Source of the DNA: Phapecoctavirus DIJ07P2
Reading direction: 5' to 3' (one strand)
Sequence record: OZ035771.1
DNA length: 64,000 nucleotides
Below the pieces are notes generated by a model. That model was given only the letters and a program-made list of their open reading frames with translations, had not been told where the DNA came from and made no database searches. Below are positions 10,707 through 63,936 of this stretch, piece by piece. The position numbers and the translations under genes were made by a program. The number at the start of each line of letters is the position of its first letter. Positions within the stretch are counted from its first letter, which is position 1.

Positions 10707-11126
10707 ATGAACATTAAATCAAATAATCCAGCTTACTCCTTCGATAACGCTTTTTGTCACGGTAGCGCCGCCAAAGGCTTCGAAATCGATGGTAAATTGG
10801 TTATCGTGAACGTTGACGGGGAAGAGGTTGCAGTGTATCCGGTAAACGATGTTAAAAGCCGTTTACAATGCCGCATGGATGTTACCGCATATCAGCTTGA
10901 TCCGGTCCGTGTAGTTGCCCTGGTATTAGAGGAAGAGATCAAAGCAATGCATCACAGTAATAAGTTTATTGGTGACGCGCAGGATAATATGAACGTTTGC
11001 CGCCATAAAGTTAATGAAGCATTGAAAGAATGCGGTTTTAAGGATCTGATGATTAAACGTGATGAAAAATTCCGCTTTCGTAATGACCTGGCAAACCGGA
11101 TCTACTCAATCTATGAAGCTTTATAA
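10707..11126 (+). CDS. hypothetical protein (139 aa)
   Basis: track ORF. Confidence 0.6.
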   Translation: MNIKSNNPAYSFDNAFCHGSAAKGFEIDGKLVIVNVDGEEVAVYPVNDVKSRLQCRMDVTAYQLDPVRVVALVLEEEIKAMHHSNKFIGDAQDNMNVCRHKVNEALKECGFKDLMIKRDEKFRFRNDLANRIYSIYEAL

Positions 11127-11139
11127 TCGACAACAAAAC

Positions 11140-11169
11140 AAGGGGCGCACAAAGCGCCCTTTCTTTTTG
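11140..11169 (+). terminator. rho-independent terminator (conserved type, copy 3)
   Basis: AAGGGGCGCACAAAGCGCCCTT followed by TCTTTTTG. Confidence 0.6.
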
Positions 11170-11199
11170 CCCGAACAATGTTGATAGCTTTCGCCTATG

Positions 11200-11680
11200 A
11201 AAAACCGACACAGAACAAAACTGAATAAATCGCGGTATCGAGCTAATCAACCAGCAAACGAATAACCATACCTCCCAGGGTTACAGGCTGTTAGAGAGCC
11301 ATTTAGAGCGGTTAAAATCGATCAACAACCAACAACAAACCATCAAAAACACCCTTTTACCTCCTTTCTAGTGCAATGATAACCATTATCATCTACCCAT
11401 GATTATCTATGCAATATAAGCGCATAATTATAATGTTGATAATAGTTCGCAACAACTAACCAACAAACAACATAAAACAATAAGCAAACTAATCATAATC
11501 AAAGGAATAATAGCAAGATGATTGATAACGACAAACAATCGAACCATGATGAATACTAAGCAAGATAACGATAACACGACAAAACAACCAACTAACGAAC
11601 AATAACAAACGAAACCATTAAAATAATAACTATTAGCAAAATAGTGCCTGAATGAAATCATTACAAAACGAATCATTCAC
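11200..11680. repeat. A+C-rich, strand-asymmetric low-complexity tract
   Basis: plus strand dominated by CAA/ACA/AAC repeats with very few G; no credible ORF. Confidence 0.5.
11372..11390. promoter_or_regulatory. Fur-box-like 19-mer
   Basis: TGCAATGATAACCATTATC; 3' 15 nt match Fur consensus at 14/15. Confidence 0.35.
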
Positions 11681-11699
11681 AGAGTCATCATTAGCACGC

Positions 11700-12060
11700 T
11701 ATGCCGGACACATAGCGAGCTAATAATAAGCCAACTACACCCCAACAATCATAACCATCGGTGACGGTTATTTCTTGTTACTGCGTAGCTTGCAATAATT
11801 GCAAGCGTAATGACGCTTACACTTATTGCGCTGGCTTATTATTAGCATTATATGTAATTACCAAGATCATAACATTAGCGCAATAACAATAGTCATTGTA
11901 ATAATTACATGAGTTATCACTATCGTTCAGTGTGATCATCATTAGCACAGTGAATAATTGCACGTAGCAACATGAGCGAATAGCGACAGGTTGCATAGTG
12001 TGCACATAGTGTATAAACATACAAGAAAATAAAGGCTAATCTTTTGGGGGCGAATACTAT
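11700..12060. repeat. cluster of palindromes and inverted repeats
   Basis: GCTAATAATAAGCC (11718) / GGCTTATTATTAGC (11838); CTTGCAAT-A-ATTGCAAG; AGCGT-AATG-ACGCT; ACAAT-AGTC-ATTGT; ATAGTGT direct repeat. Confidence 0.5.
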
Positions 12061-12150
12061 CGCGTAGCGATATGTTGAGCACCTTCTCTTAAACGTAAAT
12101 AAAATCAGAAAATTCTTGATTTATTTTAGTTTTTATGTTAATAAACGTTT

Positions 12151-12169
12151 AAATAATAATCATTCTCAT
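12151..12169. promoter_or_regulatory. Fur-box-like 19-mer
   Basis: AAATAATAATCATTCTCAT, 14/19 to Fur consensus. Confidence 0.3.
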
Positions 12170-12328
12170 ATAAATAATAGTCTGCTTGTCATGAGCGGGA
12201 TTAGTTGACAATGTTCCGTCATATGATGAAGTTGCCAAGCCATTGATAAATAAGTGTTTGTGTGATTTATAATCAGGTGGCCCACCTTGTCGCTATGTTG
12301 GCATGAGCCTTGCATAAGTCATTGAATA

Positions 12329-12350
12329 CGAATGATAATTATTCTCATTC
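12329..12350. promoter_or_regulatory. Fur-box-like palindrome
   Basis: CGAATGATAATTATTCTCATTC, near-perfect palindrome, 14/19 to Fur consensus. Confidence 0.35.
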
Positions 12351-12690
12351 GCATGATATTTGGGAATTGTCGCTGCGTGGACCTGACGGCCCGAAAATTC
12401 GCGTTAAGCACTTCTTACGTATACGCCATGATTTTTGCCATATGATATTGATTCTATTAGATATTCTTGCCATTATTGCCATGAAACATGGTGTCCCGAA
12501 ATAATCTCTCCCCGTAGATATTTTGGGTTACTTTTTATACAAGAGTGGGGTGTCAAAAATAATCAGTATATATGGGATAATTGATAGGAATCCCCTATGA
12601 TAATTCGATTGTAATTCCCTAAGATTGATCGTATGATGTTGGTGATTGATGATTGCCATGAAAGATGGCTAACGATGAGAGGAGATTGTC

Positions 12691-13065
12691 ATGCAAGAGA
12701 GTAAAAATGTTCCGTTGAGTAGTGCAACATTGCTTCGCTTCTATAAAGCATGGATTGCCAACTATCCTGCAATGAATCGCACAACGAGTGGCTTATGTGG
12801 TTGTCTGGTAGATTATGTAAATGATTTTGTTGGTGAGACAACTAGAGAAGAAGATAGAAGATGGCGGGATAGTTTGTTGGACCGTTTGAAATATGAAATG
12901 AGGAAACAATTTACATGTGCAGGGCTGGACTATAATCTTCCGTTCAATGCAGATTGCATGGATTACCTTTCAGAGTGTATAAACTTGGCGTGTCATACCA
13001 ACACGTTACGTCTTCAGTGGGTGAAAGACAGAATTGAAGATGCAAATAATGCTTGCATTGAATAA
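12691..13065 (+). CDS. hypothetical protein, paralog family A
   Basis: motifs GLCGCL and LRLQWVKDRIEDA shared with 13796, 16543 and 17800 genes. Confidence 0.55.
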   Translation: MQESKNVPLSSATLLRFYKAWIANYPAMNRTTSGLCGCLVDYVNDFVGETTREEDRRWRDSLLDRLKYEMRKQFTCAGLDYNLPFNADCMDYLSECINLACHTNTLRLQWVKDRIEDANNACIE

Positions 13066-61423: not shown

Positions 61424-61498
61424 GGCCCTGTAGCTCAATGGGAGAGCTGTCGGCTCATAACCGATAGGTAGCTGGATCGAAACCAGCCAGGGCCACCA
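61424..61498 (+). tRNA. tRNA-Met (CAT) or Ile2
   Basis: acceptor GGCCCTG/CAGGGCC, anticodon loop CTCATAA, T-arm GCTGG-ATCGAAA-CCAGC, A73, CCA encoded. Confidence 0.75.
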
Positions 61499-61500
61499 AC

Positions 61501-61575
61501 GTCTTTATGGTGTAATGGATAGCACAGGAGTCTTCTAAACTCTTAGTCAAGGTTCGATTCCTTGTAAAGACACCA
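61501..61575 (+). tRNA. tRNA-Arg (TCT)
   Basis: acceptor GTCTTTA/TAAAGAC, anticodon loop CTTCTAA, T-loop TTCGATT. Confidence 0.75.
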
Positions 61576-61771
61576 GAACATTTTAACATGAATTAGCTCA
61601 AGTGATTTGAACCCACTACTGATCATGGTGGCAGAGAATGAGGCAAGTATGTCAGACATTATAAACAAAGGCCACGGTTATATTAGAAGACATAAATGCT
61701 CGAAGAGCACTGTTCGTGGAGAACGGGGGTTGGTGGAGTCACCATTCATGGTAAAATGTTTTAAAAAACTA

Positions 61772-61800
61772 TTGACAACAAGCATTATTTTATGTTAGAT
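61772..61800 (+). promoter_or_regulatory. sigma70-like promoter for downstream tRNAs
   Basis: TTGACA 61772, 17-nt spacer, TTAGAT. Confidence 0.45.
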
Positions 61801-61809
61801 TATAAGTAT

Positions 61810-61900
61810 GGAAGGGCAAATCGACGTGGCGACGAAAACGGTCTTGAAAACCGCCGAGCTTGAAAGAGCCTTGGGAGTTCGACTCTCCCTCCTTCCGCCA
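61810..61900 (+). tRNA. tRNA-Ser (TGA)
   Basis: anticodon arm CGGTCTTGAAAACCG identical to enterobacterial tRNA-Ser(UGA); long variable arm; T-arm GGGAG-TTCGACT-CTCCC. Confidence 0.75.
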
Positions 61901-61905
61901 GATTA

Positions 61906-61991
61906 GGTAGATTGGTGAAATGGTAGCCACGACAGTTTGCTAAACTGTAGTCGGAAACGGCGTGTAGGTTCGAGTCCTACATCTACCGCCA
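61906..61991 (+). tRNA. tRNA-Ser (GCT)
   Basis: acceptor GGTAGAT/ATCTACC, anticodon loop TTGCTAA, long variable arm. Confidence 0.7.
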
Positions 61992-62121
61992 AGTTCTTTT
62001 TAATGTAGCTTACTTTAGCAGAGTAAATCTTCGGCAAGTGGCGGTAACCACTTTACCGATAACTCATAGTTAGTGGTGTGAACACTGGCTATTTTAAAAA
62101 GAATTTAAATATTAGTATTTA

Positions 62122-62209
62122 GGTGAGTTAATTCCGTAGGGGTAGCGGGGCAGACTGTAAATCTGTTATCATTGCGATTCGGGTGGTTCGACTCCATCAC
62201 TCACCACCA
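62122..62209 (+). tRNA. tRNA-Tyr (GTA)
   Basis: acceptor GGTGAGT/ACTCACC, anticodon arm GCAGA-CTGTAAA-TCTGT, long variable arm, A73. Confidence 0.7.
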
Positions 62210-62215
62210 AATTAA

Positions 62216-62301
62216 GATGAGTTGGCTGAATGGTTTAAGCGGCGGACTGTTAATCCGTGTTCGAAAGAACAATATAGGTTCGAATCCTATACTCATCGCC
62301 A
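62216..62301 (+). tRNA. type-II tRNA with Asn anticodon GTT
   Basis: acceptor GATGAGT/ACTCATC, anticodon arm GCGGA-CTGTTAA-TCCGT, 15-nt variable region, G73. Confidence 0.55.
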
Positions 62302-62308
62302 GAATTAT

Positions 62309-62385
62309 GGACTTGTAGAGTTAAGGTAAACCCCCAGTCGCCAATAGGCTTCTGGAATTGCAGGTATCGAATCCTGCCGAGTCCC
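62309..62385 (+). ncRNA. tRNA-like element without canonical anticodon arm
   Basis: acceptor-like GGACTTG/CGAGTCC and T-arm GCAGG-TATCGAAT-CCTGC, but no 5-7-5 anticodon stem-loop and no encoded CCA. Confidence 0.3.
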
Positions 62386-62391
62386 AGCATT

Positions 62392-62466
62392 GCTCCTATA
62401 GTATAATGGCTATTACAACGGTTTTGTAATCCGTGGATCTCTGTTCGATTCAGTGTGGGAGCACCA
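62392..62466 (+). tRNA. tRNA-Thr (TGT)
   Basis: acceptor GCTCCTA/TGGGAGC, anticodon loop TTTGTAA, T-loop TTCGATT, A73. Confidence 0.7.
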
Positions 62467-62741
62467 ACACAACATTAAGAGCACTGTGATTGATCGTCGT
62501 ATCCTGTGCACAAGGTCTGCTCGAAAGACAGTGTTCTTAGTATTGTGTTGATCACAAAAAGAGTCACCCGAAACTTGACCGGAGTAGGGTTGGATGGGGC
62601 AAAATGAGAAGCGGCTCTCCCATCGACAGCAACGAAGAATAATATTTGACTTTGGTTTTGTATTATTTTAAGTTAGCTTACCGAACGTAGGGCTAGTCAC
62701 CCAAAGGGATACTCGTCACTGTCCCACCTATTAAATAACTA

Positions 62742-62771
62742 TTGACATTCGATAGTAAAATGTAGTATAGT
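62742..62771 (+). promoter_or_regulatory. sigma70-like promoter for downstream tRNAs
   Basis: TTGACA 62742, 18-nt spacer, TATAGT. Confidence 0.45.
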
Positions 62772-62788
62772 AAATATATATATACAAA

Positions 62789-62865
62789 GCGTTATTAGTG
62801 TTAGCGGTTCAGCATCCCGTCCTTCCAAGTCGGTGGCATCGGTTCGAATCCGATATAACGCTCCA
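62789..62865 (+). tRNA. tRNA-Gly (TCC)
   Basis: acceptor GCGTTAT/ATAACGC, anticodon loop CTTCCAA, T-arm ATCGG-TTCGAAT-CCGAT, U73. Confidence 0.7.
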
Positions 62866-62963
62866 AATTATTTAATAAAGGGTTGCCAGAAAACTTTCTC
62901 TTTTACTAATGGTTTTCTCTTTCTCTCACACCTCTTCTGGTTGCCCTTCATTAAATGATTTAT

Positions 62964-63039
62964 TGGTTTGTAGTGTAGTCCGGTAGCACACGACACTTTG
63001 ACTGTCGTAGGTTTGGTTCAAATCCAGACAGACCAGCCA
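62964..63039 (+). tRNA. tRNA-Gln (TTG)
   Basis: anticodon arm CGACA-CTTTGAC-TGTCG, T-loop TTCAAAT, G73. Confidence 0.7.
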
Positions 63040-63083
63040 TATAACAAAGGTGAGTCACTACCTTAAGTGCGAAGTTAAAATAT

Positions 63084-63160
63084 ACAGCCTTTAGCTCAAC
63101 CTGGTAGAGTGCATCGTTTGGGGCGATGAAGTTAAAAGTTCGAATCTTTTAAGGCTGACC
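63084..63160 (+). tRNA. tRNA-Pro (TGG)
   Basis: C1:G72 acceptor CAGCCTT/AAGGCTG, anticodon arm CATCG-TTTGGGG-CGATG, T-loop TTCGAAT, A73. Confidence 0.75.
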
Positions 63161-63235
63161 AAATTACAATTCCATGCGTCTGACAAAAGGTTAGTCGGTA
63201 TAAGACGTGGGATTTAATACTTATAAGGAGGACTT

Positions 63236-63577
63236 ATGTATAAATGTAGCCATTGTGGTGAAGAAGATCCGCAAAAGTTCTACGGTCATAAGAAATCTAT
63301 TTGTGGTTATTGTCATAATAAGTATACAATAGACTTAGGACAACAGAAAAAGAAGTATGCTCGTGATAAGTTAGGTGGTAAGTGTGTTTCCTGCGGTTAC
63401 GATAAATATCAGGAAGCTTTAGATATACACCATCTTGATCCGACAATAAAAGACCGGAGTTTCGCATCCATGCGTGGGTGGTCGCTTAAGAGGATTGATA
63501 AAGAGATAGAGAACTGCATCTTACTATGTAAGAACTGTCATTCAGCTTTCCATTCTGGTCATGATATTACTTGGTAG
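63236..63577 (+). CDS. HNH endonuclease within tRNA cluster
   Basis: CSHCG...CGYCH...DIHHLDP...CKNCH; AAGGAGG RBS. Confidence 0.75.
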   Translation: MYKCSHCGEEDPQKFYGHKKSICGYCHNKYTIDLGQQKKKYARDKLGGKCVSCGYDKYQEALDIHHLDPTIKDRSFASMRGWSLKRIDKEIENCILLCKNCHSAFHSGHDITW

Positions 63578-63591
63578 TAATACTAATTAAA

Positions 63592-63665
63592 TGTTTCGTA
63601 GTTCAATGGTAGAACCCACGACTGATAATCGTGAGACACAAGTTCGATTCTTGTCGAAACAACCA
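63592..63665 (+). tRNA. tRNA-Ile (GAT)
   Basis: acceptor TGTTTCG/CGAAACA, anticodon arm CACGA-CTGATAA-TCGTG, T-loop TTCGATT, A73. Confidence 0.7.
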
Positions 63666-63667
63666 GT

Positions 63668-63737
63668 TTCCCGTTAGACTTACAGGATAAGAGATCCACA
63701 ATTTATTGTGACGCTGGTTCGAATCCAGCACGGGATA
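63668..63737 (+). ncRNA. tRNA-like element with degenerate anticodon arm
   Basis: T-arm GCTGG-TTCGAAT-CCAGC and acceptor-like TTCCCGT/ACGGGAT (1-72 mismatch), middle forms CACAA-ttta-TTGTG instead of an anticodon arm. Confidence 0.3.
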
Positions 63738-63742
63738 CATAA

Positions 63743-63821
63743 TAGCGGGATAGAGGAGTCTGGTCGTCCTCGCCAGTTTCATATGCTGGAGATCATTGGT
63801 TCAAATCCAATTCCCGCCTCC
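63743..63821 (+). tRNA. tRNA with CAT anticodon (second Met/Ile2-type)
   Basis: anticodon arm CCAGT-TTCATAT-GCTGG, T-arm ATTGG-TTCAAAT-CCAAT, A1-C72 mismatch, U73. Confidence 0.6.
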
Positions 63822-63936
63822 AAATATCGCTTGCCAGCGGTATCTTTGAAGACCTTGCCTGGTTCCTTCTAAGATGGAGGGGTGCGACTCCTTAACGCAC
63901 AATCATAATAAAACATTTCAAATTAACAGTATTTAT

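Follow-up and report, generated by a model that had tools for sequence, protein, structure and literature searches.

End recognition, cutting and duplication in large myoviruses with short terminal repeats are, to our knowledge, essentially unknown outside T7 and T3. New phages resembling phAPEC8, phi92 and rV5 keep being isolated and find use in therapy cocktails; their end region of 1.5-2.5 kb is blank or filled with spurious open reading frames (ORFs) in GenBank, and records are opened at arbitrary points. The region described here lies in a window of 64,000 nucleotides from Phapecoctavirus DIJ07P2 (sequence record OZ035771.1; 'the window' is the whole stretch analysed, and coordinates refer to it), around an interval, 11700-12060, that an earlier inspection of the letters alone (the sequence-only reading) had marked for its palindromes and inverted repeats. 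The analysis places the physical genome ends by homology, with a shared GTTR^AGCAC motif (the caret marks the boundary) at both edges of the terminal repeat, and shows the gap around the interval to be organised and conserved, with one discrete folded element, supported by covariation, inside it.

The T7/T3 concatemer junction, with its pac sequences, is the first described system with which this locus can be compared. Chung, Nardone and Hinkle reportedly put forward, in 1990, a hairpin intermediate model for T7 concatemer processing. A hairpin processing model for T7 is also cited, at second hand, in another article (PMC4281155). The DIJ07P2 locus resembles the T7/T3 junction in its direct terminal repeat, which is short and exact, in the short direct repeats close to the boundary and in having, immediately left of the right-hand repeat, non-coding unique DNA of the kind that acts in cis there, with inverted repeats that could form a hairpin while the repeat is duplicated. 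It differs in belonging to a myovirus of 150 kb, whose replication and packaging machinery is unrelated, and in having, in place of a simple palindrome, a 165-nt multi-branch fold with a long-range closing stem, whose function is a matter of prediction.

The single-strand initiation (ssi) and primosome sites of G4 and phiX174 likewise present stable hairpins within ~150 nt of non-coding DNA, between flanks unfolded by single-strand-binding protein (SSB); they act only when single-stranded, on phages and plasmids with single-stranded DNA (ssDNA). They share no sequence similarity with the present element, which differs in its 15-bp long-range closing stem and is known here from sequence alone. 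The packaging RNA (pRNA) of phi29 is of like size (~120-174 nt), is encoded near a genome end and has a 5′/3′ helix closing a multi-way junction with hairpins, but the locus gives no Rfam pRNA match, the phages concerned are terminase-type myoviruses with direct terminal repeats (DTRs) as against protein-primed podoviruses, and an RNA is here putative. As for loop complementarity of the phi29 type, CCGG in the loop of hairpin H1 (below) was all that was noticed, no systematic loop-loop search having been made, and it is not conserved in Klebsiella homologues. The injection-stop region of T5 is also gene-free, beside a terminal repeat and dense in direct repeats, inverted repeats and palindromes; it was the first guess from composition and was ruled out by BLAST, which gives Phapecoctavirus. 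The window is not T5-like and shows no homology, its repeat is 0.33 kb against 10 kb, and we know of no two-step DNA transfer in phAPEC8-like phages such as T5 performs.

A fold kept by compensatory substitutions

The folded element, or core (~11690-11846, ~165 nt), consists of hairpin H1 and a 15-bp long-range helix that encloses three hairpins in a multiloop, a structure on which RNAalifold and a separate hand-drawn model converge. Homologues from Phapecoctavirus, Justusliebigvirus, Klebsiella phages, IMG/VR and metagenomes gave an alignment of 25 sequences, which reduce to 21 different cores from no fewer than three genera; the pattern used for the metagenome scan, AGCTTGCAANNNTTGCAAGC, was too degenerate, relatives making up 4 of the 120 loci returned (L028, L038, L083 and L109). 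Across the 21 sequences 97.3% of 924 cells pair on the model structure, double-sided changes are seen in 15/44 pairs, and the observed covariation was reached by 0/500 shuffles; with one arm slid, as a control, 23-49% paired. The alignment shows the fold to be kept by compensatory substitutions. It is a covarying, conserved fold of the kind that marks structured RNAs; ssDNA would yield an equal signal.

The inner stem of H1 (ATTAGC-A-CGCTATG [CCGGACA] CATAGCG-A-GCTAAT, 11690-11724; inner stem 11697-11703 / 11711-11717) is 100% paired in the 21 sequences and includes three covarying pairs (CG<->GC, GC<->CG and UA<->CG), while outer H1 and the long-range helix are alternative pairings because both use GCTAAT. 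The 5′ arm (GCTAATAATAAGCC, 11719-11733) and 3′ arm (GGCTTATTATTAGC, 11832-11846) of the long-range helix are also 100% paired in the 21 sequences, with four covarying pairs. Compensatory changes give the arm pairs AAGCCA/TGGCTT, AACGCA/TGCGTT, ACCGCA/TGCGGT and AACACA/TGTGTT, and phage arall, within one genus, shows an A-U to U-A swap (arms AATATTA/TAATATT). An invariant 4-bp CTAC/GTAG helix found by RNAalifold (11735-38 / 11785-88; whole arm 11735-11788) encloses H2 (ATAACCATC-GGT-GACGGTTAT, 11751-11771), in which 6/9 pairs show double-sided changes and whose stem is wholly different in Klebsiella and metagenome homologues, with pairing retained. H3 (CTTGCAA-TAA-TTGCAAG, 11789-11805) has stems invariant in all 25 homologues around a 3-nt loop that varies; as these stems are invariant, without covariation, H3 may be recognised by sequence. 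Helix H4a (CGTAAT / ATTGCG, 11806-11830, pairing 11806-11 with 11825-30) has two covarying pairs and 96.8% of cells paired, and encloses a lineage-specific hairpin: AGCGT-AATG-ACGCT in the window (11804-17, overlapping), ACAATATAC-ATG-GTATATTGT in Justusliebigvirus and ATGATGTAT-GTG-ATACATCAT in KP2025. On the - strand a competing fold, GCAAT..ATTGC, is predicted in the H4 region.

Folded as ssDNA, the interval 11700-12060 gives z = -5.1. Since 11850-12077 alone gives just z = -2.3, the signal comes mainly from 11685-11850, for which folding as RNA gives z = -6.7 on the + strand and -10.1 on the - strand.

Every motif listed by the sequence-only reading was found where it had been placed or within 1-2 bases. 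The 14-bp inverted repeat it named (GCTAATAATAAGCC, 11719-11732; GGCTTATTATTAGC, 11833-11846) has perfect arms of 15 bp, 98 nt apart; the palindromes CTTGCAAT-A-ATTGCAAG (11789-11805), AGCGT-AATG-ACGCT (11804-11817) and ACAAT-AGTC-ATTGT (11886-11899) are present, as are its ATAGTGT direct repeats at 11995 and 12006. When the interval was compared with 300 dinucleotide shuffles of itself, the longest inverted repeat was 15 against a shuffle maximum of 12 (0/300), and there were 6 palindromes with arms of at least 6 (1.5 +/- 1.4 in shuffles, reached by 3/300) and 10 with arms of at least 5 (5.3 +/- 2.8); because the last count was reached in 15/300 shuffles, single 5-bp palindromes are at chance level. 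What remains of the dense cluster that had been claimed is the inverted repeat and three or four palindromes, which are helices of one covarying fold and not a loose cluster of separate palindromes or operators. ACAAT-AGTC-ATTGT, with arms at chance level, lies outside the conserved fold and occurs in close relatives only, and ATAGTGT has 8 copies in the window and is not conserved.

Outside the genus, a distant BLAST search found only ~11687-11810 of the interval conserved, at ~80%. A covariance model made from the alignment detects one copy in the window (185 bits) and full-length matches of 36-43 bits in four Vequintavirus records, where the strand relative to the upstream gene is conserved; because these scores fall within those obtained on the reverse strand of true elements (31-60 bits), they are weaker evidence than the alignment. 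The Vequintavirus element has no BLAST similarity to that of the window, lies in the equivalent gap and repeats its layout: CGCGAC-GGA-GTCGCG forms a hairpin, ACATAATATAAAAGCA/TGCTTTTATATTATGT pair as a perfect long-range helix of 16 bp around three hairpins, and CACCCC is single-stranded. Within Vequintavirus it is too nearly invariant to show covariation, while its flanks are 91-93% identical.

In Rfam 15, tRNAs alone pass the gathering threshold in the window, and the best sub-threshold matches at 11100-12700 reach at most 21 bits, to eukaryotic or archaeal snoRNA models (E >= 0.59). The E. coli genomes and plasmids searched held no homologue, and the motifs of the element were not found in the searchable literature in any phage context. 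The ends of a transposon or miniature inverted-repeat transposable element were considered and rejected, the element being single-copy in the window, its flanks (GA..AT) not duplicated and its position fixed across genera.

The locus and the genome ends

By BLAST the 1.6 kb or so around the locus matched 78 phage records, best among them Escherichia phage nieznany (97.6%), with phAPEC8 at 96%; on these matches the window, that of a phAPEC8-like coliphage, is assigned to Phapecoctavirus (Stephanstirmvirinae), a myovirus of ~150 kb. The locus sits in a 1.55-kb gap without annotated genes, bordered by homologues of phAPEC8_0017 on the left (10707-11126) and phAPEC8_0018 on the right (12691-13065), which is the end-to-end junction of the genome. 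Equivalent ORF-free gaps of 1.5-2.5 kb occur in Justusliebigvirus, Klebsiella relatives and Vequintavirus. All ORFs of at least 20 codons in the gap were listed, and the sequence-only reading was right that the interval holds no credible one: those of 41, 65 and 46 codons inside it are broken by stops or frameshifts in relatives, and an 82-codon - strand ORF just to the left of the interval has an in-frame stop in all close relatives. A search for tRNA and tmRNA genes found none at the locus. Four records (PsgM04F, AMO3598, EP57 and ETEC-TG) annotate many tiny 'hypothetical proteins' across the gap, probably by over-prediction, and some of them give implausible hosts (Campylobacter, Pseudomonas, Acinetobacter), probably through mislabelling.

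Korf et al. described a 328-bp terminal repeat in Phapecoctavirus Schickermooser (PMC6563267). An exact 329-bp sequence common to both ends of the Schickermooser record maps to window 12078-12406, and the 10C3 record has its first base at 12078 and its last at 12077. For Justusliebigvirus BME3, from another genus and another laboratory, a 342-bp DTR was called by PhageTerm (PMC12210895), and its boundaries, mapped via relatives that span the junction, are homologous to those in the window. These two DTR statements were all that literature searches on transcriptomes, termini and motifs yielded. By homology with Schickermooser and BME3 the DTR of the window, of 328/329 bp, is placed at 12078-12405/6, in single copy in a collapsed assembly, and the exact repeat at both ends that characterises short-DTR (T7-type) termini is present by homology with these relatives.

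The left boundary, GTTG^AGCAC (12074-12082, + strand), would be cut between 12077 and 12078, and the right boundary, GTTA^AGCAC (12403-12411, + strand), has the same motif. The BME3 boundaries read ...TTTGTTG|AGCCTAC... and ...ATCGCGTT|AAGCACC..., and the window at homologous positions reads ...ATGTTG|AGCACC... and ...TCGCGTT(A)|AGCAC.... GTTR^AGC stands at both DTR boundaries in both genera, extended to GTTR^AGCAC(C)TTCT at both in the window, and looks like a candidate repeated cut motif for a terminase or nickase.

The interval 11700-12060 accordingly makes up the final ~380 bp of unique sequence ahead of the right-hand repeat, with the left DTR boundary 18 bp to its right. From core to boundary there are 232 bp here and ~270 bp in Justusliebigvirus and a Klebsiella phage; several Vequintavirus records are opened ~198 bp right of the element, a point that is suggestive, though not proof, of a terminus. 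In every lineage examined the folded element lies ~200-270 bp inside the right genome end. Comparison with relatives, as the sequence-only reading had proposed, therefore finds the termini adjoining the locus and the core conserved, contrary to the outcome by which that reading would have been refuted, and its overall interpretation is partly supported. The specialised cis-acting locus it envisaged is conserved, non-coding and beside the physical ends, without the specific role of origin or cut site being borne out; as for a packaging or nicking site, the genome ends do map close by, with the cut site outside the interval.

Candidate readings: junction element or RNA gene

The core is probably a replication or packaging signal, or else an unrecognised RNA. 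With arms 98 nt apart and three enclosed hairpins it cannot extrude as a cruciform and so must fold as a single strand, of DNA or RNA. The reading to which we lean, tentatively and by analogy with T7, is that of a cis-acting folded-strand element of the concatemer junction, aiding end formation and repeat duplication. The junction would turn single-stranded as a 3′ tail from end replication, by exonuclease resection, or by strand displacement during duplication of the 328-bp repeat. The element would then fold into a stable structure resisting melting by SSB, and the fold, together with flanking ATTAGC(A) repeats, might hold the end-processing machinery (a terminase, a nuclease or a primase) at a constant spacing from the cut sites. 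The outcome would be right-end formation and repeat duplication, much as proposed for the T7 hairpin intermediate.

Position argues for such a role: a single-copy element stands between a G-poor, structure-free tract and the GTTG^AGCAC cut motif, and a conserved structured element that stops 232 bp short of the boundary, the space up to the cut holding conserved blocks and a hairpin, would fit a processing or packaging sequence. Several features of the fold, moreover, lean towards DNA. There is no G.U among 462 cells of H1 and the long helix, the stems being perfectly Watson-Crick; G.U and A.C intermediates on the + strand are about equal (6 vs 8 cells); H2, H3, the lineage-specific inserts and most boundary hairpins have 3-nt loops; and the two Vequintavirus strands fold equally (-74.6 and -77.5 kcal/mol, z about -9.9). 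The element offers a concrete handle on end formation, useful for phage engineering, for example of a minimal packageable genome.

A number of points weigh against the junction element. No sequence is shared with T7, the termini of DIJ07P2 are placed through relatives (Schickermooser and BME3), and the Vequintavirus opening point may be merely where records open; the Vequintavirus match, at 43 bits, is inside the reverse-strand range and lacks support from covariation. Justusliebigvirus has no boundary hairpin, and direct repeats instead. The single-stranded state of junction DNA is presumed, and packaging substrates are duplex. RNA accounts for the covariation equally well, and three results lean towards it: an RNAalifold consensus of -59.3 kcal/mol on the - strand vs -45.5 on the + strand, a - strand that is, as RNA, 10-20 kcal/mol more stable than the + strand in 10/10 Stephanstirmvirinae homologues, and two one-sided H2 changes that are both G.U on the - strand.

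It is possible, then, that the core is an unannotated structured non-coding RNA gene of ~130-170 nt, more likely on the - strand, acting either in trans or in cis, in the latter case as replication primer, R-loop former or packaging transcript, its position at the end being incidental or linked to its role. Covarying multi-helix folds of such size are typically RNAs, and besides the energies just given, one-sided changes in H2 and in a CUACRY/GUGUAG extension keep their pairing, as G.U, on the - strand alone; CCGGACA, ACUACAC and CACCCC, from loops and junctions, are conserved; and a leftward - strand RNA would be G+U-rich over a C-rich template, favouring R-loops. Hand inspection of both strands, however, found no conserved sigma-70-type promoter or intrinsic terminator flanking the core, phage-specific promoters remaining possible, and in a sigma-70 and terminator scan only the upstream gene's own terminator rose above chance. 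Conservation does not extend to the U-tract that follows H2. Nor is there a match to any Rfam family; an RNA would not usually combine 3-nt loops with perfect Watson-Crick stems, neither strand is favoured in Vequintavirus, and a one-sided H4a change, U.G, fits the + strand. As to the strand, folding energies and the counts of G.U vs A.C point weakly or in conflicting directions, and a literature search found no transcriptome of phAPEC8-like phages. That the element represents a new structured-RNA family of ~130-170 nt spanning Stephanstirmvirinae and Vequintavirinae, as a genome-end packaging RNA or as an RNA that primes, or forms an R-loop at, a terminal origin, is rather doubtful; if true, such an RNA would be new as a family and, with a genome-end role, the first of its kind in terminase-type myoviruses.

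Replication could also start here, at a G4/phiX-type ssi site recruiting primase for the last lagging-strand primer or at a structured part of a terminal origin, which we consider unlikely. The hairpin cluster (ssDNA z = -7 to -11) adjoins a 500-nt non-folding, G-poor tract (z = -1.4), the ATTAGC repeats are iteron-like, priming would be useful near a linear end, and in T7 secondary origins adjoin the concatemer junction. DnaA boxes, by contrast, are not clustered (one 1-mismatch site in the gap; 23 in the window vs 20.7 expected), GC skew in the window tracks gene orientation with no mark at the locus, and no other direct evidence supports the origin that the sequence-only reading had suggested. 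This possibility overlaps with the junction element and is inseparable from it by sequence.

Still less probable is a set of operators, in which the palindromes and inverted 15-mers are duplex sites for dimeric proteins and half-sites co-change with their proteins. The invariant H3 stems (CTTGCAA/TTGCAAG) are as expected of a protein site, ATTAGC(A) recurs, and high-quality Fur-box-like sites flank the region. The idea is weak because 4-5 helices of unrelated sequence keep their complementarity, which would require as many co-evolving proteins; H2 stems are completely different between lineages, in phage arall one A-T pair of the long helix has become T-A, with both arms changed, and transition-type intermediates match what base pairing predicts. 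Functionless, chance clustering of palindromes in an AT-rich spacer, to which the chance-level 5-bp palindromes and ATAGTGT and the free replacement of 11908-12040 in relatives might point, is scarcely credible and for the core effectively refuted, as the core is conserved while its flanks diverge, its covariation (0/500 shuffles) and 15-bp repeat (beyond 300 shuffles) exceed controls, and the covariance model picks out an element of matching layout in another subfamily.

Flanks and neighbouring features

An intrinsic terminator of the phAPEC8_0017 homologue (11140-11162, + strand; 9-bp stem with 6 G-C pairs and a T-run) marks the left edge of the ORF-free gap; it is annotated in phAPEC8 and kept in all genera examined. 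The gene itself (10707-11126), the last before the right end, encodes a protein ~90% identical in Vequintavirus (rV5-like), where the downstream non-coding DNA cannot be aligned; in one record the protein is given a 'Rel homology domain'.

Between terminator and core lies the G-poor tract (11170-11684, + strand; G = 13%, A+C = 66%, ssDNA z = -1.4). Across it G is 8-14% in all genera, and in Phapecoctavirus it is A+C-rich, with hardly any folding. Possible roles are a zone of Rho-dependent termination that insulates the junction, a loading pad for SSB or an R-loop template. The tract adjoins copies of ATTAGC and is 65% A+T; this motif occurs 7 times in 11001-12000 against ~0.5 per kb window-wide, 8/35 window copies being in the gap, a multiplicity kept in other genera too. 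The block ATCGCGGTATCGAGCTAATCAA (11229-11250) lies ~70 nt to the right of the terminator and is shared by three genera, although the rest of the tract drifts. At 11281-11352 on the - strand, together with 11358-11368 and 11385-11414, there is a hydrophobic ORF, 23 codons long (17 in many relatives), whose GGAGG ribosome-binding site is strong; it is preceded by TTGCAT-18-GATAAT, which overlaps a Fur-like box. The ORF may be a mini-gene or leader that has escaped annotation, and its conservation is confined to Phapecoctavirus.

To the right of the core, 11908-12040 is a variable segment containing the ATAGTGT repeats (11995, 12006) and one conserved copy of ATCATTAGCA (11938-11947). It is a replacement hot spot, with unrelated sequence in many close relatives between flanks that are both >95% identical; similarity to ESCO13, ESCO5, Schickermooser, ZCKP1 and others ends near 11907. 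Immediately left of the genome end (12042-12072) a conserved TTTTGGGGGCGAA is followed by the hairpin TATCGC-GTA-GCGATA (12058-12072), and boundary hairpins in relatives are of unrelated sequence (CCGCC-ACA-GGCGG, CCGCC-TAT-GGCGG and TAGCGC-GATCA-GCGCTA). Just left of the presumed left repeat boundary, short G/T-rich direct repeats accumulate in other lineages: TGTGTAAAC and TGTCA in Vequintavirus WalterGehring (L144 4290-4466), and CCCTATTTGTTG twice in BME3 (L007 ~1925-1961). In the corresponding zone the window has ATAGTGT twice.

Near-consensus Fur boxes were seen at 11372-11396, 12149-12167 and 12328-12352, the last two within the terminal repeat, and also at 1823-1905. Sites with at most 5 mismatches to GATAATGATAATCATTATC number 16 against 5.5 expected and cluster in two ORF-free gaps; BME3 has a 17/19 Fur-box match inside its DTR, and AATGATAAnTATTCTCA motifs occur in the Vequintavirus gap. 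These boxes may be iron-responsive early promoters or host Fur sites at the genome ends.

In unique DNA just inside the left end, a repeated TTGCCATGAAA(C/G)ATGG is found at 12479-12491 and 12656-12668, 177 bp apart; the first copy contains the palindrome CCATG-AAA-CATGG and lies among promoter-like sites for the first early gene. Elsewhere in the window a hairpin repeat, GTAGGGCGGCAATGGTGCCGCC (variant GGGCGGCGGGAATAGTTCCC), has ~9 copies on the + strand between 2574 and 9473 (for example at 2574, 4101, 4742, 6206, 8246 and 9473), situated between promoters and ribosome-binding sites of small early genes. Annotated in phAPEC8 as 'PHIRE promoters', the copies look instead like repeated stem-loops of 5′ untranslated regions, and they are absent from the gap. 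At 61424-63822, on the + strand, the window carries a cluster of 10-11 tRNA genes (Met, Arg, Ser, Asn, Thr, Gly, Gln, Pro, Ile and Met).

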